Part shown: positions 4,675-56,623 of the stretch, piece by piece
Numbering within the stretch: position 1 is the stretch's first letter
Layout: the number at the start of each line of letters is the position of its first letter
Assembly: GCA_001643675.2 (NCBI GenBank)
Contig: LSRY02000048.1
Span: 620,001 to 684,000, forward strand
Reading direction: 5' to 3'
DNA: 64,000 nt
Origin: Monocercomonoides exilis PA203
Lineage: Eukaryota; Protista; Preaxostyla
The notes under the pieces: generated by a model
What the model saw: only the letters and a program-made list of their open reading frames with translations
Told to the model about the DNA's origin: nothing
Databases searched by the model: none
Position numbers and translations under genes: made by a program

Positions 4675-6055
4675 TTAAATGAAGTGGAAACAAGAAAAAA
4701 CGTTTTTCTCACACACAAATAAAATAATCAAAAATAGAAGAAATAAAAAAAAAAACGGAAAACCCATTCCTTCAATCACACGATTGTGCAGTCCGATGAT
4801 GGAATCTTCGTATCCTTCTTCTTCCAACTTTTCAAATATCTTTCTTTTCATTTCATTTCTTTTCTCTTTCTCTGTTTCATCTTGCTCCTTTTCCTTCAAT
4901 CTTTTTGATATATTCATCAAGAAATACAAGCAATTACAAATAATTTTGTCGTCCACTGTTCCTCGCTGCATTTCCTCCAAAACAGCATCGACAGCTCCTT
5001 CTTTCAACAAGTCTTCAATTTTCACATCTCTATTTTCTGCTGCATTTCTCAAGGAGCGAATGCACTCAGAGCTAATATCTCTGCAATAATCCTTTGCTGC
5101 TCGATATGTCTGTATAATGCCTCCAAAAAGTATAGCAAGTTCTTCATTCTTCAATCGACAACTTTGAAAACAAATCCCAAGTGTTTCAACCCATCTCAAC
5201 AATGCAAATTCTTCTTTCGCTTCTTCTTTGCTCATTTCCTCTCCTTTTTTTCTCTTCCAATCCATATTCCTTGTCAGCTCTTCCAGTTCAGTAATTGTTT
5301 CTCTTGCAAAATGCAGTTCATTCATAATCACTTCATTCAAGCTTTCATCATTGTCCAATCTGGAGATCAAAAACTCCCAAGCAGATTGATACACAAGTCG
5401 TGTCAGATTTCGACACTCCTGATGAAATAGGATGATTTCTTTAATCTCCTCATAAAAATATTCTTTTTTAATTTTCTATTTCAGAAAAAAATTAAGACTC
5501 ATATGAAAAATAAAAATTGACAAAACATTATCAAACCTCCAGACAGCTAATATTTGCCAAAGCCAATAACGCCATTTCCACTTCTTTTTGTGTTTCCTCA
5601 TTTCCCCCTTTGTTTGAAGCAGCTTTCAGAATGCAAGGCACACATGTCAAAATTAACTCCGAAGAAGCTCACCTGCTCAGCAAAAAATAGCATTCAAAAG
5701 ATCAACAAGCAAACTTCATTTTCTTCATTTTTCTTTTCTTCAATCATTTCATGAATTTTGTTGAACATTTCTTCGTTGATAATAGAAAGCAATTCATCAG
5801 CATTCATTCCATCAACCACTTCATTCATTTCTCCGATTTTCTGTTCCTGCTCAGCGTCAGTGAATTGTTCCAACCCAGAAAACAATTCTTCAAATAAATA
5901 AAGAATAAATTAAATCGAAATAATCAAGAATTCAAATGCAATAATGAGCACAAACCATTGAATCTTGTTCTGGAAGATATCCTCTGTATTTTTGAAAGCA
6001 TATTGCAGACAGAAAACAACGAAAATTCGTCATTTGATTTGAATTCAGATATCAT
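4675..6055 (-). pseudogene. Helical 3-exon family, copy 1 (internal deletion and frameshifts)
   Basis: Exon 1 ends at 5956, intron 5888-5955, exon 2 5537-5887, intron 5476-5536, exon 3 starts at 5475. Family motifs are present (LFSGLEQ...QKIGEMN, QKEVEMALLAL, YQSAWEFLI, KLEEEGYED). Exon 2 is 351 nt versus 497 nt in the intact copies and is frameshifted. The C-terminus is also shifted in a poly-T run; the other frame gives ...SSIFDYFICV*. Confidence 0.8.
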
Positions 6056-9208: not shown

Positions 9209-10661
9209 ATGAGTTTGTCAAATGATGATAATTCTAAAGATGAAATTCTGACTGCGGCCAGAACAGAACAGTTTTCAAGTTTGCTCCTTTATTTGTTTTG
9301 AACCATTCTGAACATAATTTTTGTTTTTTGAATACCATTTGCAGAATTGTTTTGTGAACTGGAGCGTTGCAATGAAGACGAACAAATGCAGAAAATTGAA
9401 GAGATAAACAAACTTGTAGAAAAAATGAATAAAGAAGAATTTGAATCAATTTTCACGGAAGAACTATTCAATAAAATTCACCAAATGATTGAAGAAGAGA
9501 AAATGTCATTGGAAAATGCAATTTTGCTGCTGAAGCATTTTGGATATAACAAAGCGAAGAAAAGCTTTTTAGATTATGCATTTAGTGTATCTTTTTTGAG
9601 TGATCGATTTGAGAAAATGCTTGTTGATGAAGATAGGAAAAATGAAGAAAAGAACGAAAAGCTACTGGCAGATATTTGTGAATGTTATCTTTTGCTTTGC
9701 CAAAAAAGCATTCCTGATGAATTGCTTTCAATCGCTGTGCCTTGCCTTCTGAAATTTGCCTCGAAGAAAAAGGGAAACGAGGAGGCTCAAAAAGAAGTGG
9801 AAGTGGCGTTGCTGGCGTTGAGCAATATTGTGATGTGGAAGGTCAGATTTATTTTTTCATATATTTTTGAGTTGTTTTTATTTTTTTAATTAGATTATCG
9901 AACAAAAACTGTACTTGAAGGAAATCAAAGAAATTATCGAATATCATCAGGAGCATCACAACCTCACTCAGCTTGCCTATCAGTCTGCTTGGCAGTTTTT
10001 AATTTATCGATTTATTGAAGATAAAAGTTTGGAAGGAATGATTGTGAATGAGCTGCATTTTGTGGAAGAAGCAAGAAGAAAACTGGAAGAGCTAACAAGA
10101 TTCATTGATAGGAAGAAAGAGAAAGAAGAGGATAAAAAAGGAAAAGATACGAAAGAAGAGCTTATTATATTGAGATGGATACAAACATTGAATCGTTATT
10201 TTCTCGATTGCACAATGTGGAATGAAGATTTTATTGAGCATCTTTACGGTATTGTTCAGTTATTTCGAGCAGCAAAGGATAATCACAGGGAAATTGGCAA
10301 TGAATACCTCGAGACACTTAGATTTGCATCAATAAATAGATATATGACAATTGATGGCTTGTTGAAAAGCGGAGCTATTAATCTGTTTTTGGAGGAAATG
10401 AAACAATCGACTTTGGATGATGATATTACGTGGAGTTGTTTGCATTTCTATTTGAATATTTCAGAAAGATTGAAAGAAAAGAAGAAAAACGAAATGGAAG
10501 AAGCAGAAAGAAAAGTGTTGAAAAGAAAGATATTCGAAAGGATGGAAGAAGATGGATTTGAAGATGAAATTGCAAGCCTTTATGGATTCATGTCTTTTCA
10601 AAACGAAAAACATCTTGAAGGTTTTTCGTTGAATATTTCTGATTATTTTGTGAATGTTTAA
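9209..10661 (+). CDS. Helical (ARM/HEAT-like) 3-exon family protein, copy 2, intact, about 444 aa
   Basis: Exons 9209-9278, 9345-9841 and 9894-10661 join in frame through GT-AG introns (phase 1, phase 0). The protein reads MSLSND...TEQFSKLFCELERC...QKEVEVALLALSNIVMWK|IIEQKLYLKEIKE...YQSAWQFLI...DYFVNV*. Confidence 0.85.
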
Positions 10662-16026: not shown

Positions 16027-17501
16027 TTAGCAATAAATGAAATAATCATCAATGTTTTCAACCAAAAAATAGGAAGAGAATTCGACTTCATTCATGCAAC
16101 AGCGCAGCCCGATGATGCAATCTTCATATCCTTCTTCCTCTAACTTTTCATGTGCTTTTCTTTTCAACTCATTTATTTTCGCTTCATCACTTTCTATTTC
16201 TCTTTTGCTATTTAATCTTTCGCAAAGGATTTTGAAAAAATGCAAATAATCCGAAGTTTGTTCATTGACCACATGTAATTGCGTAACCTCCTCTAAAACA
16301 GCATCAACAGCTTCGCTTTCCAACAAGTCTTCAATCTTCACAACTCTATTTTCTGCTGCGCTTCTCAAGAAATAAATGCACAACTCACTAATTTCTCCGT
16401 GGTTTTCCTTTGCTGCTCGAAGCACCTGAATAATGCTTCTGATAAGCTCAATGAATTCGTCGTTCCACAATGTGCACGATTCAATGAAAAATCCCAACGT
16501 TCTGATCCATCTCTTTGAAATATTTGCTTCTTTCATTTCTTCTCTGCTCATTTCCTCTTTTTTCTTCTTCCAATCCACACATTTCGATAATTCTTCAAGC
16601 TCCTTTGCTGCCTCTGTCACAAAATGCCGCTCGTTTACAATTAACCTTTCCAAGTCTTCGTCACAGAACAATCTGTTTATCAAAAACTTCCAAGCAGATT
16701 GATAGCCAATGCGTGACAGATTGTAATGTTCCTGATGATTTTGGATGATCTCTTTGATTTCTTTCAAATACAGTTCTTGCCTTAAAAACTAATTAGAAAT
16801 CAGAAAATAGTAATAATATCAAAAAGGAAATAGCAATGTTCATACGTAATACCTGTCAATGTGACTTAAAGCCAAGAAAGCTATTTCCACTTCTTTTTGA
16901 GTCTCCTCGTTTCTCTCTTTCTTCGAGGCAGCTTTCAGAAGGCATGGCATAATTATTGAAACCATTTCAGTTGATATGATTCCATCATTCAGCAAAAGAT
17001 AGAATTTGCAAAGATTAGCAAGAAAATTTTCATTCTTTTCTTCTTTTTTTATGTTTTCAATAACAATCATCTTCTCAAATCTTTTGTTCAATGAAGATTC
17101 TTTGAAAGAATGTAATAAACATATTTTCGTCCCGTTGATGAATCCAATATGCTTCATCAACAAAAGAACATTTCCCATCGTCAATTTCTTAACTTCTATC
17201 ATTTCATCTATTTTGTTGAACAGTTCTTTTGTGAAAATTGATCTGAATTTTTCTTTATTCATTCCATCAACGTTTTCATTCATCTCTTTAATTTTCTGCT
17301 TCTGCTCTTCCTCATTGCAATCCTTAAGCTCAGAAAACATTTCTGAATAAAAAATTATAACAAAAAATGCAACAAACAAGTTTTAAAGTGTAACAACAAT
17401 TGCAAACCAGTGAACCATTTTGCTTCGTCTGTCAGCTGCATTTTAACACAAATGCAGTACAAGAAAACACCATTTTTTTCATTTTCATTGAACAAGTTCA
17501 T
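16027..17501 (-). CDS. Helical 3-exon family protein, copy 3, intact, about 450 aa
   Basis: Exons 17408-17501, 16846-17342 and 16027-16788 join in frame through GT-AG introns 17343-17407 and 16789-16845. Intron phases and the 497-nt exon 2 match copy 2. Confidence 0.85.
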
Positions 17502-18739: not shown

Positions 18740-21700
18740 CTAGATCGATTTGTATTGTCTTCGCTTCCTGTTTCTCACCACACAAACAACAATTACAACC
18801 GCCACAACTGCAGCAATAGAAAACACGCTCACAGACACAATGATTGACACCAGCTGGGCTGTTGTCAACTTCGGATCTTCTTTCTTCTGCTTTGCCAGAG
18901 TTATATAACCTGTGCTTTTTTCTCCTTTTGTAATTCCGCTCGGATATCTCAGCCGGCAAACCAACGATGTGTACTCGTCGCCATCCAGCAGCGATGGAGG
19001 AATCTCCACTCTCGTCTCTGTCTCGTTCACATACTCAGAAACAGGGCATTCAATCCACTCCTTTATTTTTCCCATTCTTTTCTTCGATGCTTCAACTATA
19101 AGTTCGCATGGAAACAGATAACACCCCTGAATCACAGCGCGTGCTCCTTCGTCTGACTCGATTATTCGACCTTTTCCTTGCTCTGCTGTCTCCTTGGCCT
19201 TTTTGATCATCGTTGCATTCTTCAAAACAGGACTGAAGAAATACGAGTCCATATTTTCTGCTGCTTGTCCACCAACCTCTCCTTCCACAAGCATCCCAAA
19301 TGGCTTCCCTTCCAATCCATCACTTCCAGCCGCCAGGCTGTTGATGAAAACTTGATTATATCCCATGCTGTCCAGGAATCGAATGTTGTTGTGCAATGAT
19401 GCAAACTTTTCCCAATTCTTGCCAATCGGGTGATTGTTCACAAAGCTGCAGTTGTTCAAGCTCAGACGGGAATGCAAGGAATAGATCACTCCTTCGCTGA
19501 TGTCCAAAAATGAGCTGTCATTGATGGTAATGTGAAACATTTCATATGTGCAAAGCAATCCAGAATCCCACGAACACAGCAGATTTTCCTCTTCTCCGAT
19601 TTCATTCTTCTGATCGCTGATTGTAAATGATTCCTCGAATTTCAAAAGGCTGCTCTTCTCCTCTCCTTCTTTCTCATCTTTGCATTCGTTGTGCTGCTTG
19701 CTGCTTGTGATGTTTCCGTTTCTCCCGTTAATGACCAGCTGCGAAAATGTATTCGATCCTTGGCTGGACACTATCAGCCTGTACGGAAGAGCTCTTCCTT
19801 CCCCCCCTTTCACATTTTCTCCTTTCAAGCCTGTGTACCACGGCCTGAAGACAACATCTGTTAATTTCAAGTTGCGTTTCGAATAGATCACATCCAGCGC
19901 GTCTCCTTCAATGGCATCTGGATACTCGATGTCAATGTGCTCAAACTTCAGATAATAATTGTCCATATAAAACACAGCTGTTGACTCCTCCGCTTTCATA
20001 TTCGCCCCAATTCGAAGGATGCCCCGATTCTTCTTTACAGCTGAGAACATTTTTGAAGCTGTGCCAGATCCCTGTTCCCATTTAGATGATAATTCAGATG
20101 AAGGTTCAGACGCAGAAGTCAGTGTTATGTCCTTGTCAATCAAAAACGGCTCGTTTACGAAAACTCTTCCAATCACATACATCGTCATAACTTCAATATG
20201 GATTCCATGCTTGATGGCTGTGCTGAGCAGATCGCACGGTCTTTCTTTTGCCCCACAGACCTTGTCGTCGCTCGCCTTCGCTCCTCCAACATAAATATTC
20301 TGAGAATGGTACGGCAGTCTGTTCGCTTCGTCGCTCAGAAGATCAACAACATTCGCCTCTCCCCCTTTCCTTTCTTCCAAAAGCATCAGATTCGCTTTTC
20401 CATATATCTCTTCCATCTCAAATTCAAACAACTCCTCTTTTATCTGCTTCCTTCCGCTCGGAAACGAAAGATACACAAGCTCTCCTCGGTCTGCCCAGCA
20501 CTCACTAAATCTCATCCCGTTCAATCTCAAATTCACTGCTCCTGTGATTTCATCAGCAGCCCAAATAAACATCGCTCCGCCTTTCGACTCTTCGTTCAGC
20601 ATCAACCCCTGTTCATCTGAAGTCATTTGCGCACCTTTGCACGAGCAATTTTTGAATTCAGCACCGTAAAAGCTGTAATAATTCCCATTCCCAATCTCCA
20701 AATGCAGCACTCCTCCCAGTCGATGTTCCGTTGATCTGCAGTTAGAAAACTTTCCATCGTCAAAGCTCAGATGCTCGCACTCCGCCAAAATAGTAATAAT
20801 TGACTGTGTTGTGCTCGTTGAAGAGATTGTGTCCATGTTCAATCTAATAAAATCAATATATTTCGCAGCTTCCACCAAGACGAGTGCAAAAGAAGATGTG
20901 AAATGAGAGATAAAGACTTCATTCAGAGTGAGCTTTCCCATTTTGCATTCGATCAGCACACAGTTTAGAATCTGTTGAGAATCGGTGCACGAGATGTTCA
21001 CTCGGTAGATGTCAGCACACGCCCTGTCTCCATCACACACAAACAGGCCATTGTCTCTCCCGCTCTGTCTCGTTGTATCCACTTGCACATCTGCTCTGTA
21101 CAGCCCAAAATTCGCATTTTGCCGCACATTAAACAGTCCCTCGCCCGGATGCGCCTTCGCTTCGTCCAGCGCTGTTGTGATGCTGATGACGTTTTTTTTT
21201 CTGTTTGTGACTGTGGCAGACCTCTCTTCAATCATTATTGGCTCTGCGTCGTATTTGTTGCCGTCTTCTGCTGCATACACAGTAAATGCTCTGCCTGGAA
21301 GGCATTTCAAGAGAGCTTGCTTCATCGTCTTGCAAGGTCTTTTCCTCATTTTGCCACATTCCGCGCTGTCTTCTCCATTTTCTCCATCGACATCGATATC
21401 CAGCGTGTCAAAGCGCAGCCAGTCCTCATAAAATACAATTGCTCCATCTTTCTTTATCGCTCCAACTCGATGGTCTTTCGTCACGCTGAAGGAATCTGCG
21501 TCAAAAGGCGTTCGGCTCATTTCAACGTCTCCTTCACTGCACAGCGCAAGATCATTTCCGCACTGTCCTGCTGAATTGCCTCTGAAGAAACAGTTTTTGA
21601 ACAAAATTTCGTCGATCAGCCTTGTCTCTTCTCCCAAATGTATTGCCATCCCTCCGCCTGTCTTTGCCTTGCATCCCCGAAATGTGCCGTTTCTGCATTC

Positions 21701-22834
21701 AAATCCTGCCATCTGCGTCAGATCACGTATCGCCAGCCCTCCTCCATCCGCAGCTGCCTCACAGCTGCGAAACTCCACATTTTCCAACTTCACTTTCCCT
21801 TTCATTGCGCCAATCATCGCCCCTCCCCCACGAACAGCCCTTCCCCAGTCAAATATTGTATCGACAATGTTCAGTTCACTCTCCGGGTGCATCATCTCAA
21901 AATAGATGCAGCCACCATTTTCTGATTTCTGCGATTGCATCGAAGATATCTTGCATTCAGATATAGTAATCGCCACTTTTTTGTCTGCCCCACTTTTCGC
22001 TTCGAGCAGCGCTGGCCCTGCATTTCCCCTCTCAACAGAGCCAAAGTGGCTTCCTTCCAGTGTGAACGAAGACCGAAGTTCCAGGGCACATTCTTTGTCG
22101 AGCTTTGCATGGTCCATTTGAAGACTCTTCAATTTTTGAACAGCAACATCTTCGGATATGTGCAGGATGGCCACACTAGAAAGATAGTAATACCCCAAGA
22201 AACCCCAATGAAATCCATCAATTGACAATTTTCCTTCTGTTATTCTCAATATCGAAAATGGCGCATATTCATCTGTCCATTTTTGAAAACATATTCCAAC
22301 ATGCCTCATCGTCAAGGCTCCCCCAACGCCCCTAGAAAGAATCACCGCGGAAGAGGCGTCTGCTTCCTTTGATAGCTTATCAGTTTTGAATGGAATAAGA
22401 TTAAACATCAAATGTTCCAGCGTCAGTGTTTTCTCATTCACCATGTGGAACTCCCCTTTCGCAACAATGCCATCCAATTCAAAATCGAGTGTTTTGCCCG
22501 CGCCCTGCTTCGATGCTGCTGCTATCCCAAGGCTGAAATCTTTCAAAAACTGAAAACCGTATGGAATTTCAGCGGAATCAACAATTTTGACGGACTTATC
22601 CCCAGGACCTTCCCCAAGCAGCTCAATCCCTTTCGCAATTGTTTTGCACGGATCCGCTTCACTTCCACAGTTCTGCTTCGAATCGTCTCCTTTTTCAGAA
22701 ATAAAAACGGCATCAACAGCTGCCTCGGGACGGCCATCGGAAAATGCATTTGACCAATTTTTGTTATCGCGCTGCGGAGCGGGACAACTGGCAAACAGAC
22801 AGTTCGCGAGAATCAAAGTCAAAAACATTTTCAT
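18740..22834 (-). CDS. Large Cys-rich type-I surface protein (beta-helix/Pmp-like repeats), 1364 aa
   Basis: Single intronless ORF with a signal peptide (MKMFLTLILANCLFA). It has three CG-x(4-5)-PC modules and repeated GG(G/A)-hydrophobic plus FxxC motifs. The C-terminal TM helix is followed by the tail RNRKRRQYKSI*. Confidence 0.9.
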   Translation of the reverse strand: MKMFLTLILANCLFASCPAPQRDNKNWSNAFSDGRPEAAVDAVFISEKGDDSKQNCGSEADPCKTIAKGIELLGEGPGDKSVKIVDSAEIPYGFQFLKDFSLGIAAASKQGAGKTLDFELDGIVAKGEFHMVNEKTLTLEHLMFNLIPFKTDKLSKEADASSAVILSRGVGGALTMRHVGICFQKWTDEYAPFSILRITEGKLSIDGFHWGFLGYYYLSSVAILHISEDVAVQKLKSLQMDHAKLDKECALELRSSFTLEGSHFGSVERGNAGPALLEAKSGADKKVAITISECKISSMQSQKSENGGCIYFEMMHPESELNIVDTIFDWGRAVRGGGAMIGAMKGKVKLENVEFRSCEAAADGGGLAIRDLTQMAGFECRNGTFRGCKAKTGGGMAIHLGEETRLIDEILFKNCFFRGNSAGQCGNDLALCSEGDVEMSRTPFDADSFSVTKDHRVGAIKKDGAIVFYEDWLRFDTLDIDVDGENGEDSAECGKMRKRPCKTMKQALLKCLPGRAFTVYAAEDGNKYDAEPIMIEERSATVTNRKKNVISITTALDEAKAHPGEGLFNVRQNANFGLYRADVQVDTTRQSGRDNGLFVCDGDRACADIYRVNISCTDSQQILNCVLIECKMGKLTLNEVFISHFTSSFALVLVEAAKYIDFIRLNMDTISSTSTTQSIITILAECEHLSFDDGKFSNCRSTEHRLGGVLHLEIGNGNYYSFYGAEFKNCSCKGAQMTSDEQGLMLNEESKGGAMFIWAADEITGAVNLRLNGMRFSECWADRGELVYLSFPSGRKQIKEELFEFEMEEIYGKANLMLLEERKGGEANVVDLLSDEANRLPYHSQNIYVGGAKASDDKVCGAKERPCDLLSTAIKHGIHIEVMTMYVIGRVFVNEPFLIDKDITLTSASEPSSELSSKWEQGSGTASKMFSAVKKNRGILRIGANMKAEESTAVFYMDNYYLKFEHIDIEYPDAIEGDALDVIYSKRNLKLTDVVFRPWYTGLKGENVKGGEGRALPYRLIVSSQGSNTFSQLVINGRNGNITSSKQHNECKDEKEGEEKSSLLKFEESFTISDQKNEIGEEENLLCSWDSGLLCTYEMFHITINDSSFLDISEGVIYSLHSRLSLNNCSFVNNHPIGKNWEKFASLHNNIRFLDSMGYNQVFINSLAAGSDGLEGKPFGMLVEGEVGGQAAENMDSYFFSPVLKNATMIKKAKETAEQGKGRIIESDEGARAVIQGCYLFPCELIVEASKKRMGKIKEWIECPVSEYVNETETRVEIPPSLLDGDEYTSLVCRLRYPSGITKGEKSTGYITLAKQKKEDPKLTTAQLVSIIVSVSVFSIAAVVAVVIVVCVVRNRKRRQYKSI

Positions 22835-25336
22835 AGAAAGACAATTGGTTGTTGATCAACAAAAAGAAAATTATTATCAAAAGTGTAATTGTTCTTTAAA
22901 ATTCTTTTTGCGTCTTTCTTTTTGGAAATATTGCACCATGCTCCAGATATTTTTTTTCTTCCTGGGGTCGCAGTTTTTACATTTCGGAATGCATATCAGA
23001 AAGAAAAAACAACATATTTTCTGCTGTTTGAGTAAGAAGAAAAAGAGACATATTTTTGTGTCGACGAATAATATTTCATTTTTATACTGTAATATTTTTC
23101 CTTCCACTTTTTGTATGTTTCATTTAAAAAAAATAACAACAAATCATTCATTCAAAGAAAATGAATCGAAACAGTTGCTTCAAAACAAAAATTGCAACAA
23201 AGCAAGAATCTCAAAAACAACTTTTTCATTTGATTCTTTCATTTGTGTCACACGAGAAGGGATTCTTTGAAAAGGAAGATAAAAGCTTATGTGGTGCTGT
23301 TTTCCCAGCGAATGAGGGCAACTGAGGCTTTGGAGAGGCGTGAAACTATTCTGATTGGCCCATTGATATTCACTCGCTCCGATCTTCTTCGCGATGACAT
23401 TCATCCCATTTGCTCTGGAAAGCCAGCACTTCATATGTTGAAGCAGAATCGATTTTCCTGATGATGGAGCTTCCCATTTTTTTCTTTTCTTCCATCGCAG
23501 CTTCCTCTCTTGGGTTGTGTTTGGCCATCAGTTTCTCTTCATTGTTGATTCTGCCTTCAAGCAATCGCTTTTCCCCCTTCTCTCCCAGAAATCTTGAATC
23601 GGTGCACTCTGGTGCGTTCGTCCTCTCTCTTTCCTCTTCTCATCGACACCTTCAAATGTGCCTGCGTCTCTCAATAACTTGAACCGTATCCACGTCATCC
23701 ACACGTCCTACGCTGCTGGTGCTGACTGAACGGTCATTCGGAACATCAGAAGGGCCACCACACAGAACAGCATGCTCGCGTCAGTCACAAACAGAACACG
23801 CAAAGCAGCAGAGACTTCTTTTTGCAAATGCTCATCTCACAGCATGCCCACAGCTCCAGAAACAGAACAGACAAAGGAATCGCCAATGTTGCAAAGCAGA
23901 GACCTCCACAATTCATTCCCATCTGCTGCTATTTGGATCATCAAAAAAAGGTCAATCGCCAAATACATACGCACACCCGCACACGCGCGCAGTGAACAGC
24001 AGAAGGCAAAACAAAGCAAATGGCAGTTCGTTTTCTTGAGACAAGAACAATAGAATATTATTCATGACAGTTGTGAGTGAATGTCTGCAGATGGCTGAGG
24101 AAAGGGAATTTGGTTGAAAGGGAAGCAAGTATGAAGGAGATAAAGACGAGCCGCTGTTGAAGAAGATGCGCAGAATCCAGCGGATGCAGAAACAGAAACA
24201 GAACAAGAAGAAGATGATGATGACGAGCTGAAATCGAATGATATTTTTTCAGGCCAAATGTTGAACATGGAACCGAAGAAGTTGTTGTGGAACAGAAACA
24301 TTTAAAACTGCCCTTGTGATAAATAACGGAAAGGCTGAAAACATGTTGCAAACAAAGCAAATCATGATTGATACAATTTTTTTTTCAAAAGAGTATAACA
24401 AAGCAGAAGATGCAAATCAATGTGGAGCAAAGCTTAGTAACACAATGAGAGACAACTTATCTTCGTTTGGATCGTTCCTTCAAAGGCTCGATTGCCTTCA
24501 TAATCGCAATGCACAAAATATTCTTCTGAGAAAAACTTCGATCATCCAATTCATTTCCTTCACTCATTTATTGTCATTTTCCTGCCTTCTAATTGGACAA
24601 CAGCTTTCTTTGTTGAAAACGCTCCAATATGTTTCTCTTCTTTTTCAAGAATTCCAAATTGAAAAACAACTTGTTTTCGCTCCTCTTAACACAGCTGTTA
24701 ATTCTTGCTAAACTTGTTTTCATCTCAATCACAGCAAAAGTTGAATGAAACTGCATTAAATCCGCATATTCCTTTGTTTTCAGTTTATTATTCTATTCAA
24801 AGCTCCTTTTCTTCCATATCCTGCTTCACAAAGCAAACTAATCACCTTTTCAAATGAAAATCAGACATTTCGCTTTTCAAAAGGCTGCAAATGGAAAGAT
24901 CTTCGCATTAATCGTGAGACTCTCATCATCTTGAACATGGCAATAAACAACAGAAACAATTGAAAATTGTTATTCATTCAAAGGTATTTCATATGAAATA
25001 ACAAGAAAATGAAAACCAAATTTGACGATTTCTTGTGATTGCCTCCGGCCATCACTGGAAATAATTCTCACGATTCAGAGACAGATAATGCATGATTATC
25101 TCTCACTTTGCAATGGACCGTTATGTTTTGAAAAATTAAAAATTAAAACAAAGCGATCCAAACAGCCATAACAACAAATCCAAATTGTTGAATCGTTGTT
25201 CTTCTTCTCAATTACTCTCCAAAAATATTAATATTTTAAAGATAAGTTTGAATACAGAAATTTAAATGACTGTGAACTCTTTTCATTTTTCAATTTTTCC
25301 GAACTGTTTTGTTTTGTATCTGTGTGCTTGAAGAAA

Positions 25337-26810
25337 ATGATGTGTCTTCAGGATGACGCAATACAAAAAATACAAAAGATGAATATCACCGAAAAGTTCA
25401 ATGGTTTGCAAACATTGATATTTTTGAATTTATGATTACTGCTTCTCCTTTTATTTTCTGTTTTTTTTTTGAAGTTTTGTTCGACGAACTGGGCCATTGC
25501 TCCGAAATTGAACAGAAACAGAAAATCGAAGAAATAAGGGAAATTATGGATGAGATGGACGAGGATGAAATCAAATCCATTTTCACAACTGACAATTTCG
25601 ACAAAATTGGAAAAATGATTGAAGAAAAAGACATGGCATTGGACAGGGCTATTTTGCTGATAAAGCAAATTGGATATTATAAAGCGCTGACTGGAGCGTG
25701 GAGCGACCATTATTACTATTTTGAACTGAGCAAAATATTTGAGGAGATGATTGTTGAAGAAGATGAGAAAAAAGAAGAAAAGAATGAAAGACTTCTTGTT
25801 GATCTTTGCGAATGCCATTTAATCACAAGTAAATGTTTTATACCAGACAATGTTATTGTTATTTGCATGCTACACCTTCTGAAAGCTGCATCAAACAAGA
25901 AAGAAAACGAAGAAACACAAAAAGAAGTGGAAATGGCTTTGTGGCTTCGAGCAATATTTGGTATTGGGTGATGTGCACTTTTTGTTTGTTTGTTAGTGCA
26001 ATAATTTTTGTTTCATTTGTTGATTTCTCTCAATTTTTTTATTAGGAAATAAAGCAAGAACGATATATCAATGAAATCAAAGAAATTATCGAACATCATC
26101 AAAAACACCACAATCTAACGAGATTCGCGTATCAATCTGCTTGGGATTTTTTGATAAATAGATTTAATTTCGACAAAAGATTGGAAGGAATGATAATGAA
26201 TGAACTGCATTTTGTCAGAGAAGCAGTGAAGGAACTGGAAGATCTGACAAGATGCGTGGATTGGAAGAAGAAAAAAGAGGAAATGAGCAGAGAAAAAGTG
26301 AAAGAAGCAAATGTTGTAAAGGGATGGACCCGAACATTGAAGTCTTTCTTCGAGGCATGCAATTTGTGGAATAAAGAACTTGCTGGGCTTGTCAGCAGTG
26401 TTGTGAATGTATTTCGGGTGGCAAAGGATAGTCATAGAGAAATTTGCAGAAGATGCATTCATTCCTTGAAAGAAGCAGCAATAAGCAAATCAGTGAAAAT
26501 TGAAGATTTGTTGAAGAGCAGATCTATGGATGTTGTTTTTGAAGAACTTCATCAGCCAACATTAAGTGACGAAATCAATTTATATTGCTTTAGATTCTTT
26601 GAGGGTACCTCAAGAAAATTGGAAGAAAGCACAGACGATGAAATAGATGAAGCGAAAAGAAAGACGGTTAAAATGAAGTTGTTTGAAAAGATGGAAAACG
26701 AAGGATTCGAAGATGTGATCATAAGCTTTGAGGAAATATTTTCATTTTTAGTGTTAGAATTTAGATGCACAATACCAGGACGTTCAACATATTATTTTGT
26801 AAATGTCTGA
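25337..26810 (+). pseudogene. Helical 3-exon family, copy 4 (single -1 frameshift; pseudogene or sequencing error)
   Basis: Exons are 25337-25403, 25475-25967 and 26046-26810. Exon 2 is 1 nt short: gctttg-tggcttcgagcaat near 25941, versus ...LLALSNI in the paralogs. Exons 1 and 3 are open. Confidence 0.75.
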
Positions 26811-28535: not shown

Positions 28536-30038
28536 TTACAGGTGAACAAGATAATCAAATGAATCTCTTGACAGTTGGTAATTTGGATTGTTGCTGATGA
28601 TATTCAGCAGCGTTCCATGAAAGCTTGTGATGATATCTTCGTGTCCTTCTTCTTCCATCTTTTCAAACAACTCTATTTTTGCTGCTTTTCTTTTCGCTTC
28701 TTCGATTTCATCATTTGTATTTCTTTTCAATTTTCTGGAAAGTGCAACAAAAAATTCCAAACAACTGAATGCATTTGAGTCTTCAATTGTTATTTGCTGA
28801 ACTTTCTCCAAAAACACATTAACAGCTCCACTTTTCAGCAATCCATCAATTTGAATATCTCTGTTTCTCGCTGCAGTTCCCAAAGACTGAATGCATTGCC
28901 TATAAATATCTCCATGATTATCCTTTGCTGCTCGAAGCACTTGAATGACGCTTCTGATAACTTCAATAATTTTTTCATTCCTCGAATTGCATGAGGATAA
29001 ATAAATTTCCAATACTTCGAGCCATCCTGTCAAAATAAGCTCTTCTTTCATTTCATTTCTTTCCTTTTCTTTTTCATGCTCTTTTTTCTCGCAATCAATG
29101 CATTTCTTCAGTTCATTCATTTCGCTTTGAGCTTCTCTCACAAAATGCAGCTCATCAACAACACTTTCCAATTTTTCTTCGTAGTATAATCCGTTAATCA
29201 AAAACTCCCAAGCGCACTGATACGCAAGTTGAGTGAGATTTCCACACTCCTGATGATATTTGATGACATCTGTCATCTCATTCAGATACAGCTTTTTTTT
29301 GATCTATTTCAGAAATGGTGTTAAAAATTCATAAGAAAAACAATAAACACAAAGCAGTATCATGCCTTTTATCTGTAAAAGCAATTCAGCGCTATCAGTG
29401 CAATTTCCACTTCTTTTTGTGTTTTTTTATTATCATTTTTGCTCGAAGCTGCTTTCACAAAATAACGTAAGCAAATAACTAACGATTTTCTAGGAATCAT
29501 GCACTAGCGCATCACTGTACAGCATTCACAAAGATCTGTTAGGAGCCTTTCATTCTTTTCTTGTTTCTTTTTTTCTTCTTTGACAATCATCTTTTGAACT
29601 CTTTTATTCAGCTTTGACTAATGAAAACTGTTACTCCACTCATTTATCTGCTCTTTCCAATTGCCAATATGTTTCATCAGCAAAATAGCTCTGTTCAAAG
29701 TCAATTTCTTTTCTTCAATCATTTTAATAATTTTGTCATAATTCTTTTTTGTAAATATTGAATGAAATTCTTTTTCTTTCATTTCTTCAATCATTACGTT
29801 CATCTCATCGATTTTCTTTCTCTGTTCATTCCCATTGCAATCTTCCAGTTCATCAAGCAACTCTTCAAAAAATTAATAAAATATTCAAAAATATCTGAAG
29901 TTTAATCAACAGAAAAAACCACAAACTTGAAAACTTTTCTGTAAGCTCTGTCTTGAATTCTTCCTCTTCCTCGTCATCCCAATCCTCTTCTTCTTCCTCT
30001 TCTTCCTCATCATGATCGACTCCATTAATTTTACTCAT
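28536..30038 (-). pseudogene. Helical 3-exon family, copy 5 (nonsense mutations)
   Basis: Exon 1 is 29927-30038 (acidic, ...KTELTEKFS) and the intron is 29863-29926. Exon 2 has in-frame TAG at 29618-20 and 29504-06 and TAA at about 29369-71, and the second donor reads gcatga. Exon 3 (28536-29303) is open. Confidence 0.8.
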
Positions 30039-42723: not shown

Positions 42724-43851
42724 GTTAGTGCATTTTTTTCTTGATTAAACATTCAATGCTTTGAATTTTTTTTTTAAATTTTTATTTTTATTTTTATTTT
42801 TATTTTTACATTTATTTTTGTTTTAAAATTTTTTTTTTGAAATGGAGAAAAAGACAAAATTGATAGTTCTGAAAATACTTGTACTCTCACTTATTACTTT
42901 CATTTATCTCACTTTCTCGTCTTCTCGTCTTCTCGTCTTCCCTCTCTTGAAATTCAGCATTCTCATAAATGTATTTTTCAACCTTCAAACCCTCTTCTTG
43001 AACTCTTCTCTTCCTTTTTCACTCTTTCCTTTCGCCAAAAATCATCTTCAATTATCTGTATCGCATATCCACTCTTGAATAACCTTTCATAGTGGAATAT
43101 TTAATCTCTTTTACCCTTTCTCTTTCTTCACTTTTCATCTTTTTGCTCTCCCTGAACTCTTCTTTTAAAAGCCATCTTGTCCTCCCACTCTATCTCGAAT
43201 ATTCCTTTCAACAACAAAAACAGTGAAAATCAATTCAAAATTCCAAAAAATATAATTAACATGAATGGAGATTTTTTACCCTTTTCAGTGATTCGAATAA
43301 TCGAAAATGCACATTTCCTGCAATTAAATGCAATCAGCCCATTTCTATTTCTTCATTCCCTCATTTTTCAACAGTCTTATCAGCAGGTTAACCAATCGTT
43401 TCTTTGACAATCTTTCCCAACTCCATTTCCTTCGATTTCCGTTCAATTTGAAAGAAGTGGCGATTATCTTTGATTTTCAAGTCTATCCTGTTTAACGAGA
43501 AACTTAGTTTGCTTTGTCAAAAAATCTATCATATCCTTCATCCTCCCAATCACATCATTCTGTAAAGTCTTCAATAGCTCTCGCTTCTCATTATAAATAT
43601 TAACTTATGGGCATATGATACAAATACGCCACCTTGCCAAATTTAAGATGAACTTAGGATCATATGTTAATAGCACATTTAAAAAGACAATTCAATCGTT
43701 TATTAGTGGAAAAATCAGATTTTATTGAATAAAATATTGATCAACCCATTGAAAATTCTAAATATTTGTGCACAAAATTGTCAGTTTTAATATTGATGAG
43801 TATATATATTATACCAAAAACATTCACGAATGTCAAACATTTAATCATTTG

Positions 43852-45491
43852 ATGGAGGAAAAACAGAATTTATTGAAGATTTTTTGCGATAATGGAGAAA
43901 CCACGCAATGGATTCACGACAATGTGATTAGCACTGCCAGAAGATGCCCAATAGCAACTTGTCGTTCATTAATGATTGTAATTTGAGGAAGAAAAGGAAA
44001 ATGGTTCTTCAGATGTCACAAATGCAGAAAAGAAGTTTCTTATAAAACAGGAACTCCGTTTGCAAAATCAAAACTCACAATTGAAAATCTAATTCTGATT
44101 TTTTTCTTCTTTTCCCATCATCTCAATATTTAACAAACATCATTTCTAACTTCATGTTTAAGACACAGAGTTTCTCATTATTATTGCATTTGTCGGAGAA
44201 CATGTGCTCAGATGATTGGTGGAATTCAAACTTCCACAGGAGGTCCTGGCCGCATTGTGGTAATTGATGAACCTGTTTGGAGAAGGCGAAAATACAAGAG
44301 AAATTTTGATTCTTTATCTGTCGAATCTTAATTATCAATTGAATTTTTTTTATCAGGACGTGCTAAGAAGCAGATATGGATTTTCGGTGCTCAGGAACGT
44401 GGAAGAAAAGCATTTGTTTATCAAGTGTGCAACAGATCTGCCTCTGAATCAATTCCGTTTAAAAATATATATATACGTCCAGGAACAGAAATCCACTCTG
44501 ATCAATTGAAAGCATATTTTTCTTTAAGTGAGGATGGATTCACACACAAGACCGTCAATCATTCCGAGCATTTTGTGGGTTTTTATTTTCTCTTTTTATT
44601 GTCATTTTTCATGTAATGTTATTTCTCACTTATTCAGATCCAATTACCGGTGCTTGAACAATTCATATTGAAACGTTGTGGGATGCGCTTCGTAAGTTCA
44701 TGCCTTCTCAAGGAGTGAGAATTAATAGAATGCATGTATTTTTCTATTCATTTTTGTTTTTCAGAAATCGAAAAGTTGATTTTTCCATTTTTGTGTCGAA
44801 TGTGATGAAATACAGTCTAAACAGGATATGATCACGTCGAATACAATCGCATTCGTTTATAGTCACATTTTTCGATGCACCGATATTTTTTGACAGTTTT
44901 TCATACATTTTCCATCGCATATAATCACAGGGCTAAATATTTCTAATCACATCTTTTATTATAATGTGTGCTTTTTTCAATGAAAAATCGATTTTTTGAT
45001 CAAAATTTTCGATTTTTTTTGATTTTTCAAAATTATGTTTAAATAAGTCTTAATAACATAATCAAACATAAAAAATTGTTTTATCTATTGAAAAATGCGT
45101 TTAAATGTAGAATTTTCGAACATTTAAAATTTGACCCAAAATTCATTAATTGATTAATTAATTTTTATTTTTTCTGTGTAAATCATCATCGTGTATAGTC
45201 ACAATCGGATAGAGTCACAAAAAGTTGTGCAAAAACCGATGTGATTATATCCGGTTTAGACTGTACAGTGATGAAGAATGCAAAGCTCTTGAGGATGAAG
45301 ATTTTGGTCCTGAAGAAGAGGAAGAAGAGGCTGACACTGAAATGTTTCACGAAGATGAATCTTCAAAGAAAGATTATGTGCGTGAAACAGATGCATCATC
45401 AGATGGGGCCAGGGACGGAGCTGATGCATCTGAATGGGAGGCTGATAAATATATACCGATTTTTCCACATATCATTCTTCTTAAATTTTAA
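43852..45491 (+). pseudogene. Merlin/ISXO2-like DDE transposase with two introns; nonsense mutations and MITE insertion
   Basis: N-terminal Zn-ribbon CPIATC...CHKC, then GGPGRIVVIDE...RRKYKR|GR...WIFG...NRSA...IRPGTEIHSDQLKAY...HKTVNHSEHFV|DPITGA*TIHIETLW. Introns are 44303-44356 (donor decayed to AT) and 44579-44637 (GT-AG). Stops occur at 43984, 44131 and 44655. The acidic tail resumes in frame after the MITE. Confidence 0.9.
44813..45263. mobile_element. Tc1/mariner-pogo-like MITE (451 bp), TA TSD, nested in the Merlin transposase
   Basis: TIRs cagtctaaacaggatatgatcacgtcg and (reverse complement) cagtctaaaccggatataatcacatcg match 24/27. TA is present at 44811-12 and 45264-65. Removing the element restores ...NVMKY-SDEECKALED... 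in frame. Confidence 0.92.
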
Positions 45492-45792
45492 AACAACATG
45501 TTCTCTTTGATTATTTCTTTGTAATATAAAGATTTGTGAGGTGGCTTATAAGTACCATTTGCCAACTTTTGAAGCAAGGATGCATTTTTGTCATTCATTT
45601 TCGTTGATTTTTTCATGTGCAAAGCACGGAAATGCATAAAATAATGAAACTTTCAAAAATAATAAAATATTTTTTTGAAATATCAAATTCAAATATAATC
45701 TTCAATTTTGTTAATTGAGTCATTCCAAGTGTCGCATTCGCTCAGTGCATTTCATAATTGCGAATAAGGTTGATTTCTGTTTTTTTTCGATG

Positions 45793-45971
45793 TGTCACAC
45801 AAAAAATAATTCTAATTCGAAAAAAAATAATTCGATTTCGGAATTAATAATACAATTTCGTAATTTATTAATTCAATTTCGAAAAAGAATAATTCAATTT
45901 TGAAATCGAATTAATAAATTCCGAAATTGTATTATTTTTTTTCGAATTAGAATTATTTTTGGTGTATGACA
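45793..45971. repeat. Foldback/hairpin element (MITE-like) built from ~21-bp subrepeats
   Basis: aaaaataattctaattcgaaaaaaaataat is present on both arms in inverted orientation, with outer tgtca...tgaca and internal aattc(g/a)atttcg units. No clear TSD. Confidence 0.75.
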
Positions 45972-46314
45972 AAAAATTACACAAATAAGTGATTTCAAAA
46001 ATGAAATATTGCCGAGAAAGAACAATATTGATATATGAAACAGAATTCATTCTCATCCTTTATTCAAGTTTATTTCATCTCAAATAGAAAGAAAGCTTCC
46101 GAAAAATGATTTTTAAAAAAATTTAGAACAAACAGCAATGAATTTAAAAGAGATAGGTGTTTCCTGTTGAGGACCATCTTTTAAAACTAATATGAAAGGA
46201 TTCTACAAAGAATAATTTGTTGACAACAAATTCATTTTTTATCACATTTTTTGTTAATTATGCCCATATTTTATAAATATCACAGAATAGAAAAAAATAT
46301 TCTCTTGAGGAGCA

Positions 46315-49300
46315 ATGCTGACTATTTTGATTTATTGCCTGTTATGTCGTCATGCAATGGAACTTGATAATCCAAGTTATCAATTGTCGAAAAACATTAA
46401 CGAATGCAGTGAAAAAGACAATCAATTTATTGTTTCTGACAAAGAATCAAAATCTCTGTTGTATCCAAGCGCAGATCCGAGTGAACAAATGAATGCAACG
46501 AAGAAAGGAAAAGAAAATATCGAAAGTACTGCAATGACTGAAACGTTGAAGTCCGCAATTGAAAAATCATCAGATTATTCAGAAAAAAATGCTCATGACT
46601 CGGAAATAATAACCAAATGCAGTGAAGATGTTCTGCACGAAGATGATCCAATAAACGATAGTACTCAAATGAATAATGATTTGTTGAATAATGAGGAAAA
46701 AGAGGAAGTTTTCTTAAATGGAGAAGATGGGAATGATGATGCAGAATGCGGAAAATCAGAATCGAAACCCTGCAAAACAATAAAAAGAGCGGTCGAGAAA
46801 TGCATTCAAAAAGAATCAATAATTTTATGCACAACTGAGGAAAGTAACAAATATGATGCTGAGCCAATCACATTTGAAGATCGGAACGTTGAGATCAAAA
46901 GCAATGACAACTTCTTCATTACAATCATCACTGCTTTAGATGAATCAAAGGTTCAACAGGGTGATGCACTGCTAAATATTAAGCAAAACGGACGTCTTAC
47001 TCTGGAAAAAGCATATGTTCAAGTAAATTCTTCACGTGAAAGTGGCCGAAATCAGGGTTTGACTCTTGTAGAAGGAGATAATGCGACTTTTAAGGCTAGT
47101 CACACGCATATAACAATTGCTGATTACGAGAAAGGGTTGAATTGCGTTTTATTTGAATGTAAATTAGGATCATTGCATTTTTTTGAAACAGAAATTTCGC
47201 ACTTTAGATCTTCTTTCGCTTTAATACATGCAGAAGTATCAGATGCAGTTGTTTTCTTTTGTTCAACGTTGAATGGACTCACAACAACAAGTACAACACA
47301 ATCAGTAATTACGATTATGAGTGGATGCAAGCTGCTGGCTTTGATAGATTCAAATTTTTCAGATTGTTGCTCAACAGAACATAAACTAGGAGGGGCATTA
47401 TATTGGGAAATAGGAAACGGAGATAATACTCATGAAATAGCAAATTCAAACTTTTGCAATTGCTCTTGCAAGAGCAAAGAAGCAAACGGACATCAAAACG
47501 AAGAATCAAAAGGTGGAGCAATGTACATTCGTGGAAATGATGGAGTGATCGATGCATTGAATCTTTCTTTGAAAAATGTTGCATTCTCCGATTGTTCAGC
47601 TGACAAAGGTGAATATATATTTTTGTCTTTGGCATCTGGCCGAGAACAAATACCGGAAGACAAATTATCATTTGATATGGAAGAGATTTATGGAAAGCCA
47701 AATTTCATTTTATTGGAAGAAAGGAAAGATGGAATTGGCAACATTATTGACCTAATGAACGATGGGACAAAAAGGCTTCCATATTCTGCACAAAATATCT
47801 ATGTTGGAGGAGAGACATCAAGCCAGGAAAAAACTTGCGGAAGGAAAGAAGAACCTTGCAATTTGTTGAAAACAGGTAAAAGCCACATAGTCAAAGGCGG
47901 TCATGCTATGATATTTGTGATTGGAAGAGTTGCTGTTGATGAACCATTTATATATGATGAAGCTGTAACATTAACATCTGCCATAAATGATTGCTCAATG
48001 CCATTTTCTGAAAATGAACAAAAACGAGGAATTCTACGTGTTGGAGCGAAGATTGAAGCTAAAGAATCAAAAGCTGTTTTTGAGATTCAATATCGTGATA
48101 CAAAAATTGAGCATATCGATTTTGAATATCCTGATGCCATTGAAGGAGATGTGCTGGATATAATTTATGATAAAAACAGCTTACAAATATTTGACGTGGT
48201 GTTCAGACCTTGGAAGACTGAGCTAAAGGGAGAAAATGTTCTTGGCGGAGAAGGAAAACCTTTGCCATACAGGCTGATTGTGAAAGAAAAATCAACGGGC
48301 GACATTACCAGGTTGGTTGTCCATGGAAGAAATAGCAATGATAATGGGGAAAATCATCGAAACAACAATCAAATGGAAAATTTTATAAAACTAAGTGAAA
48401 TGGAAGAAATCAAACAAAATTCTGGAATCGTTGAAGAAGTCGTAGAAGATGACAATCCGTTGTGTTCTTGGGATTCTGGACTTATATTCATTAATCAGGG
48501 TTATTATTCATACATCAACGACAGTTCATTTACCGATATCAGCGAGGGTGCCATTTTTGTGGAATCATCTAGTTTGAATATGAACAATTGCAGCTTTGAA
48601 AATAACCATCCGATCAATGAAGATTGGATGAAATTTCCTTCTCTGCATCACAACTTCCGTGTTAAGAAGAAAAGTACTGATGAATACATTTACATTAATT
48701 CATTGAGAAAAGGAAGTGATGGGACAGAGGGAAAGCCATTGGGAATGATTTCTTTTGCTAATGTTGGAGGATCTGCTGTGGATAACACAAGCTCACTTTT
48801 TTTCATACCTGTTTTGTTGAATGTATCTCTGGAAAAAGAGGATCAGAGGAATGTAAATGGAATGGTTTATCGAACAAATGACGAATCTGTCATTGCGGTT
48901 GTGAGCGGAGAATATTTATTTCCTTGCGGTTTGACGTTTGAAGCATCAAAGAAAAGAAAAGACCAAGAACTGAAATGGATTGATTGCCCTGTTTCAGAAT
49001 ATGTTAACGAAACAAGAATGAATGTTAAAATCCCGAAATCGGTTCTTGATATTGATGACTACACATCTATTGTCTGCCGCTTATCTTATCCAAATGGCAT
49101 GATGGATGAAAAAAAGAGCAAATCAAAAGAGTTTGTTTTCGTAAAGCAAAAGAAAGAAGAAACTGCAAATGACGAACCTAAAGACAAGAAATCTTCTCAC
49201 ATAATTATAATCGCTGTTTCCGTGAGCGTTTTTGTTGTGGTTGCAGTGGTTATAGCCATTGTTGTTATTTGTGTTGTGAAATATAAGAATCGCAATCGGT

Positions 49301-49329
49301 ACAAGTCAATTAACGATATATCGAAATGA
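46315..49329 (+). CDS. Large Cys-rich type-I surface protein, 1004 aa, paralog of 18740-22834
   Basis: Intronless ORF with a hydrophobic N-terminus and two CG-x-PC modules. It is colinear with the C-terminal ~880 aa of the 1364-aa protein (NKYDAEPI, EHKLGG, EESKGGAM, YPDAIEGD, LCSWDSGL, YLFPC, CPVSEYVNET). A TM helix is followed by the tail KYKNRNRYKSINDISK*. Confidence 0.9.
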   Translation: MLTILIYCLLCRHAMELDNPSYQLSKNINECSEKDNQFIVSDKESKSLLYPSADPSEQMNATKKGKENIESTAMTETLKSAIEKSSDYSEKNAHDSEIITKCSEDVLHEDDPINDSTQMNNDLLNNEEKEEVFLNGEDGNDDAECGKSESKPCKTIKRAVEKCIQKESIILCTTEESNKYDAEPITFEDRNVEIKSNDNFFITIITALDESKVQQGDALLNIKQNGRLTLEKAYVQVNSSRESGRNQGLTLVEGDNATFKASHTHITIADYEKGLNCVLFECKLGSLHFFETEISHFRSSFALIHAEVSDAVVFFCSTLNGLTTTSTTQSVITIMSGCKLLALIDSNFSDCCSTEHKLGGALYWEIGNGDNTHEIANSNFCNCSCKSKEANGHQNEESKGGAMYIRGNDGVIDALNLSLKNVAFSDCSADKGEYIFLSLASGREQIPEDKLSFDMEEIYGKPNFILLEERKDGIGNIIDLMNDGTKRLPYSAQNIYVGGETSSQEKTCGRKEEPCNLLKTGKSHIVKGGHAMIFVIGRVAVDEPFIYDEAVTLTSAINDCSMPFSENEQKRGILRVGAKIEAKESKAVFEIQYRDTKIEHIDFEYPDAIEGDVLDIIYDKNSLQIFDVVFRPWKTELKGENVLGGEGKPLPYRLIVKEKSTGDITRLVVHGRNSNDNGENHRNNNQMENFIKLSEMEEIKQNSGIVEEVVEDDNPLCSWDSGLIFINQGYYSYINDSSFTDISEGAIFVESSSLNMNNCSFENNHPINEDWMKFPSLHHNFRVKKKSTDEYIYINSLRKGSDGTEGKPLGMISFANVGGSAVDNTSSLFFIPVLLNVSLEKEDQRNVNGMVYRTNDESVIAVVSGEYLFPCGLTFEASKKRKDQELKWIDCPVSEYVNETRMNVKIPKSVLDIDDYTSIVCRLSYPNGMMDEKKSKSKEFVFVKQKKEETANDEPKDKKSSHIIIIAVSVSVFVVVAVVIAIVVICVVKYKNRNRYKSINDISK

Positions 49330-54109: not shown

Positions 54110-56623
<2,514 letters not shown>

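Follow-up and report, generated by a model that had tools for sequence, protein, structure and literature searches.

A decayed Merlin transposon of Monocercomonoides exilis with two likely spliceosomal introns in its transposase gene

Results and Discussion

Positions 43610-45563 of the window, by which we mean the whole 64,000-nucleotide stretch of DNA analysed here, are a real but dead copy of an undescribed, multi-copy Merlin family. Its transposase gene is interrupted by two short inserts of 54 and 59 nt, which on sequence grounds are likely true spliceosomal introns. We regard it as quite probable that the source of this decayed copy from the oxymonad Monocercomonoides exilis carried two host-type introns and that these were gained on the family's own branch. 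A more specific account, in which an autonomous Merlin acquired both introns anew, at sites resembling AG|G within the catalytic domain, and went on transposing whilst its sisters stayed intronless, is held with less assurance, but is still favoured. The ends, the duplication, the triad, the inserts with their boundaries and their occurrence in sibling DNA, and a nested MITE with its empty sites are observed directly; splicing, past autonomy and gain rather than loss are the parts of this explanation that we infer.

Boundaries and identity of the element

The inverted ends of the element begin with GG and match at 20/25 bases (left repeat of about 25 bp, plus strand, 43610-43634; right repeat, minus strand, 45539-45563), and are complementary at 28/40 when extended imperfectly to about 40 bp. 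They are flanked by AACTTATG (43602-43609) and AACTTTTG (45564-45571), an 8-bp target duplication identical at 7/8 positions. No other GG...CC pair of the 64-kb window, at spacings of 0.5-5 kb and 17/25 or more matches, comes with a 7/8 duplication, which confirms the GG-terminal repeats and 8-bp duplication that a sequence-only reading of the window had described. Moreover, the depth of contigs from public DNA runs rises inside the left boundary and drops about 15-fold in the next bin outward from the right one. Merlin elements are characterized by 5'-GG ends and by terminal inverted repeats between 24 and 462 bp long (PMC8101967), and 43610-45563 shows GG ends, an 8-bp duplication (8 or 9 bp being required), a DDE_Tnp_IS1595 domain with the D-D-E triad, and dispersed copies. 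Several to about 20 divergent contigs cover each position in one DNA run, with depth falling at the element ends. The same reading had called the element complete; both ends are indeed present, but the open reading frame holds three stops, the donor of insert 1 is lost and a second element lies inside.

That second element, which the sequence-only reading did not mention, is a nested 451-bp MITE (44813-45263) in exon 3. It has no ORF, exists in many copies, and has short inverted ends (about 27 bp, beginning CAGTC) and a TA duplication (44811-44812 and 45264-45265); from the TA target and the CAG start it is likely of Tc1/mariner type. Sibling contigs skip 453 nt at this site (among the 15 of 28 joints listed), and many contigs stop at the MITE boundary with unrelated flanks. 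Without the MITE the Merlin copy is 1501 bp long. Contig depth summed over the MITE reaches tens of times that over Merlin, depth not being the same as copy number; its copy number in the same runs is apparently very high. Literature searches aimed at MITEs or transposons of the M. exilis genome listed no paper on them.

The transposase gene and its decay

The transposase gene lies on the plus strand. Exon 1 (43852-44302) opens with an ATG at 43852, and its frame holds a zinc-ribbon-like part with four Cys (43945-44025; residues 32, 37, 55 and 58), the first catalytic Asp (44266-44268) and the RKY motif. It is collinear with three full-length relatives, with gaps of 1-2 residues only, and a third intron or a frameshift in exon 1 is ruled out by this collinearity. 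Exon 2 (44357-44578), assigned through Pfam PF12762, holds the second catalytic Asp (44500-44502) and the NHS motif. The first part of exon 3 (44638-44812), delimited by frame and by comparison with sibling copies, holds the catalytic Glu (44670-44672), and the remainder (45266-45452) encodes the acidic tail. Once the MITE is discounted the frame continues into this tail, and the read-through is identical to the M. exilis model P0003 at 168/229 positions without a gap. The DDE motif set of IS1595/Merlin is borne out: DDE_Tnp_IS1595 is matched at 42.6 bits against a cut-off of 27 with insert 1 still kept (77.9 bits for the M. exilis model P0183), and the catalytic triad D139, D199 and E236 is present in full. 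The zinc ribbon stands less firmly. The four Cys are there, but Zn_ribbon_IS1595 (PF12760) gives no match in the window copy, and 8/9 full-length relatives match it below the cut-off only. A zinc-ribbon domain has already been remarked on in a few eukaryotic Merlins (PMC8101967).

The window copy is interrupted by stops at codons 45 (43984), 94 (44131) and 231 (44655). Sibling copies have no stop at codon 231 and stop instead at codon 345 (45450-45452), a stop lost in the window copy; the family ORF is therefore 344 aa, with a tail of 61 aa. Among the variants listed, the near-private changes of the window copy comprise 7 synonymous and 21 non-synonymous ones, where 21% synonymous is expected without selection, and so fit what selection-free decay would produce. 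Of the intermediate-frequency changes listed among siblings, several of which share codons, 7/15 are synonymous, against the same 21%.

The tail holds 27 D/E among its 61 residues up to the family stop and ends in G-x-G-x-x-ASE-W. An acidic tail had been noted before at about 80 aa and as unusual; the tail exists, but it is shorter, and it is no peculiarity of this element, since representatives of 7/7 published Merlin families have an acidic tail and a G-x-G-x-x-ASE-[YWF] end. In the clade of relatives described below, the terminal motif occurs in 16/31 members against 3/110 others and an acidic stretch in 22/31 against 11/110, both patterns having been written after the sequences were seen. 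A C-terminal G-x-G-x-x-ASE-[YW] after a variable acidic linker thus marks a Merlin clade (P0007, P0018-P0037) made up of M. exilis and metagenome records. Its conservation suggests a putative binding site. Docking of the motif on the core found no support, with a pLDDT of 44-61 over the last 40 residues.

Two inserts in the catalytic domain

Insert 1 (44303-44356, plus strand, 54 nt) and insert 2 (44579-44637, plus strand, 59 nt) are both in phase 1, the former between D139 and D199 and the latter between D199 and E236. Every cut position around each insert was scored against relatives outside the family, and the best-scoring removals were exactly 54 and 59 nt, in agreement with the inserts first read at the RKY and NHS motifs. 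For insert 2 the GT...AG register ties for the top score, as a joint best cut against these relatives. For insert 1 the AG-ending register starts with AT and ranks lower in the window copy, as 44302 and 44303 are both A there. Insert 2 thus reads GT...CAG in the window, and insert 1 reads AT...CAG in the window and GT...TAG in most sibling depth. In random window DNA of the same lengths, the chance of GT...AG ends is 0.2% per insert when one register is allowed and about 1% when five are. If insert 2 is retained the frame shifts and a stop follows 12 codons later, and insert 1 of this copy carries a TAA in frame at 44329. Splicing of the source element is very likely, because inserts that are kept truncate the protein before the triad is complete.

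Both inserts resemble host introns in composition, with 20-22% G+C and 54-61% T (20% and 54% for insert 1) and a pyrimidine share of 65% and 75%. Five candidate host introns predicted in a repeated gene family of the window are 52-78 nt long, with 15-27% G+C and 48-63% T, and the genome has 31,693 predicted introns with 25.2% G+C and canonical GT-AG ends (PMC6759080). The description of the inserts as host-type introns thus holds for size, composition and the GT...AG ends of insert 2, but for insert 1 the window copy itself reads AT...AG and GT is found only in siblings. Neither insert has a clear branch-point motif; YTRAY matches occur in insert 1 and none in insert 2, and among the host candidates there are only weak matches, in two of them. 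An apparent kinship between the two inserts was rejected as chance, their likeness being no better than that of shuffles (1822/2000 reach the score). No sign of introners was found, in that the inserts are mutually unlike and contigs cover them no more deeply than the exons, a comparison that short divergent copies could escape.

Sibling copies and gene models

Sibling contigs came from four public DNA runs (X1-X4) of one sample in one study, which therefore count as one witness, and contigs drop rare variants. A fifth run, X5, a gut metagenome with a share of 0.08, gave 6 short pieces only and was left out. At 44303 a G was read in 1019/1109 of the sibling depth in X1 (8 contigs), 423/454 in X2 (13 contigs), 41/41 in X3 (7 contigs) and 45/45 in X4 (6 contigs). 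Nearly all of the depth has G at both 44302 and 44303, giving G|GT...AG for insert 1, so that copies with a GT at donor 1, which the sequence-only reading had proposed to look for, do exist. That reading would have yielded to copies devoid of the inserts. No sibling contig examined skips either insert, and between 44255 and 44685 the listing holds a single joint, an unrelated skip of 100 nt. For runs X1 and X2 the variants listed at other positions account for all G changes counted, so that among the variants listed no common one is left for the G of acceptor 1, of donor 2 or of acceptor 2.

Eleven M. exilis gene models, on at least 9 contigs of different length, belong to the insert-bearing family. 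All are predictions, and 2/11 cleanly span both junctions: MONOS_3020 (P0003) and MONOS_3244 (P0183). Each is named 'putative uncharacterized transposase-like protein', is truncated at its N-terminus and has both junctions joined by automated annotation; they are identical to the window read-through at 168/229 and 181/224 positions, respectively. The other 9/11 are incomplete or wrongly joined, which is what dead copies should give: P0012, for example, is predicted to join exon 1 directly to exon 3, and P0006 and P0013 are predicted to start inside insert 2. P0183 retains the conserved motifs of each of the three exons, along with the motif that ends the tail. Its predicted fold comprises an RNase H-like DDE core and a disordered tail (pLDDT 81.6), and the best structural match of this model in the PDB is the Sleeping Beauty catalytic domain (E 6e-4). 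By sequence, the PDB holds no solved relative (best E 0.11). The intron reading therefore gains from GT at donor 1 in siblings, from the presence of both inserts in all siblings examined and from public models that join both junctions; splicing itself is deduced from these.

Relatives and the origin of the inserts

Searched at E <= 0.001, a set of 1.84 billion representatives yielded 6502 matches, of which the best 150 were used. After 9/150 rows had been dropped for short coverage, a quick tree of 141 rows and 149 columns was built, with no named bacterial outgroup. The window read-through pairs with P0003 (98) and then with P0007 (93), within a 32-row clade (SH-aLRT 92). At the junctions we compared 32 proteins, namely the 30 other clade rows together with P0003 and P0183, and 31/32 cross junction 1 and 29/32 junction 2 without a gap. 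Eleven clade members are sourced to Logan, ENA or JGI gene calls, which we take to be unspliced single ORFs. A scan of JGI metagenomes with P0003 confirmed 0 relatives among 97 pattern matches. P0007 (MONOS_8612) represents a further M. exilis Merlin family and is the nearest sister, with no match to the proteins compared from the published families F1-F7. Two further top matches, P0015 (1750 aa) and P0016 (1611 aa), contain five Merlin-like stretches each and are possibly tandem or mis-joined.

Lopes et al. 2021 reported over 100 Merlin copies in at least seven families in Monocercomonoides sp. PA203, with ends of 23-29 bp and 8-bp duplications, and confirmed their tblastn matches with ORFfinder (PMC8101967). 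For representatives of 6/7 of these families the published coordinates cover three nucleotides for each residue of the protein, and these genes are therefore uninterrupted; the label of F6 does not add up. The inverted-repeat sequence of the window family differs from the F1-F7 ends given there, and the strings RKYKRG and GADASEWE have 0 occurrences in the readable part of the sequence lines of supplement 4. Moreover, the word 'intron' has 0 occurrences in the text and 11 of the supplements of that paper, two.aln supplements lying outside this count. Because representatives of six published families are uninterrupted and nearly all clade proteins compared cross the junctions without gaps, gain is the simplest reading, and it probably took place on the branch to the window family. 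Substantial intron gain has been inferred in the M. exilis lineage (PMC6759080). Long residence of Merlin in this lineage was already argued from family diversity (PMC8101967); the introns support the same claim, made in the sequence-only reading, along a line independent of that argument.

We propose that the transposase gene of the source element would have carried two short host-type spliceosomal introns, both of which the host major spliceosome would excise to give a 344-aa DDE transposase. Going by the chemistry of the superfamily, this transposase would bind the 25-bp inverted ends, excise the element and reinsert it, creating an 8-bp duplication. As the element transposes in DNA form, each new insertion would inherit the introns. 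Their gain would fall on the family branch, within an acidic-tailed Merlin clade that is otherwise unbroken at both positions. After insertion at 43610 this copy would have acquired three stops, lost donor 1 and its stop codon, and received the TA-targeting MITE.

Alternative explanations

The inserts might instead be old introns of the acidic-tailed clade, or of a eukaryotic Merlin ancestor, lost in the sisters, for instance via reverse-transcribed transcripts. The nearest sister, P0007, is known from a gene model alone and the quick tree leaves much of the inner branching order of the clade unsettled, both of which leave some room for this history; against it, two introns would have to be lost precisely and repeatedly in at least six published families (PMC8101967) and lost again in the 11 clade members from Logan, ENA or JGI gene calls, and the bacterial relatives have no spliceosomal introns. 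We consider such a history improbable. Somewhat less probable still is that the inserts are plain A+T-rich insertions in a dead element, never spliced, with the family amplified in trans by another Merlin transposase. Splicing is deduced from DNA and gene models, amplification of non-autonomous elements is common, and further GG-ended Merlin families occur in the genome (PMC8101967). Yet both inserts would need GT...AG ends, at the chance level of 0.2-1% each given above, together with host-intron size, composition and phase-compatible boundaries, and a never-functional gene sits badly with the conservation in P0183 of the motifs of all three exons and of the tail motif. Moreover, amplification in trans is countered by the inverted ends, which are unlike those published for the seven families (PMC8101967).

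Intron gain has been reported for domesticated transposon genes, which makes it conceivable that the gene is a Merlin-derived host gene whose introns were gained after fixation. A domesticated gene is at odds, however, with intact ends and target duplication, with several to about 20 different contigs at each position and with near-private changes (the 7 synonymous and 21 non-synonymous ones listed) that lie close to the 21% expected without selection, and we regard this origin as very unlikely. Most improbable of all is a bacterial IS1595 of a contaminant, mis-assembled into the window. The superfamily does have bacterial kin, but the nearest named relatives of the window transposase, at 73-81% identity, are gene models of M. 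exilis; contigs from the DNA runs above cross the left boundary into flanking DNA with no differences, and a TA MITE of eukaryote type and intron-like inserts lie within the element. The view that the element is eukaryotic and no bacterial contamination is thereby upheld.

Other features of the window

A foldback element of about 170 bp (45797-45965) lies 230 bp downstream of Merlin; it is built on a unit of about 21 bp, and its arms are 92% complementary over 52 nt. The window also holds two related intronless long ORFs, at 18740-22855 (1371 aa) and 46309-49329 (1006 aa), which by eye resemble surface proteins with a likely signal peptide and a C-terminal membrane anchor. One two-exon host gene family is present in five copies (4675-5640, 9332-10661, 16027-17382, 25357-26810 and 28536-29460), with candidate introns at nearly the same place, one of which starts with GC and not GT (29365). 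A perfect trinucleotide run at about 54565-54830, of about 75-80 units, reads as poly-Leu or poly-Tyr when translated.

Significance and comparison with known systems

Provided that the inserts are spliced and arose on the family's own branch, they constitute a clean example of a mobile gene acquiring introns, for which the intronless sister families of the same genome serve as controls. This double gain in a selfish gene related to bacterial ones would then be both multi-copy and phylogenetically bracketed, and would offer a system in which to ask whether splicing gates transposase output. The family also indicates that ORF-based surveys undercount Merlin, given that the published survey of this genome has seven families and not this one (PMC8101967). 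No new mechanism is revealed: introns in transposase genes are already known, both inserts are too degenerate for their source to be traced and the copy is dead. Within the open literature, including the text available to us of PMC8101967, PMC8293314, PMC9942856, PMC2874221 and bioRxiv 2021.12.14.471607, and with Feschotte 2004 and Repbase outside this scope, we found no intron-bearing mobile Merlin.

The window family is like F1-F7 in its GG ends of about 25 bp, 8-bp duplication, length of about 1.4-1.5 kb, DDE_Tnp_IS1595 domain and acidic tail motif, and differs from them in its two intron-like inserts, six of the F representatives being uninterrupted (PMC8101967). With the bacterial IS1595/IS1016 group (PF12762, PF12760) it shares the DDE domain, the 8-bp duplication and the N-terminal four-Cys ribbon, the last below threshold in relatives; to these the window Merlin adds spliceosomal-type inserts and an acidic tail with a terminal motif, in a comparison whose tree holds no named bacterial sequence. 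Introns are known in other mobile genes. The Minos transposon gene has two exons and a 60-bp intron (PMC2874221), and Fanzors are genes of prokaryotic origin that have captured introns (PMC10530073). Like these, the window family would be a mobile gene relying on the host spliceosome, with intron gain as a sign of eukaryotic residence (PMC2874221, PMC10530073). Unlike in Minos and Fanzors, which belong to other superfamilies, intron-bearing and intronless sister families here share one genome.
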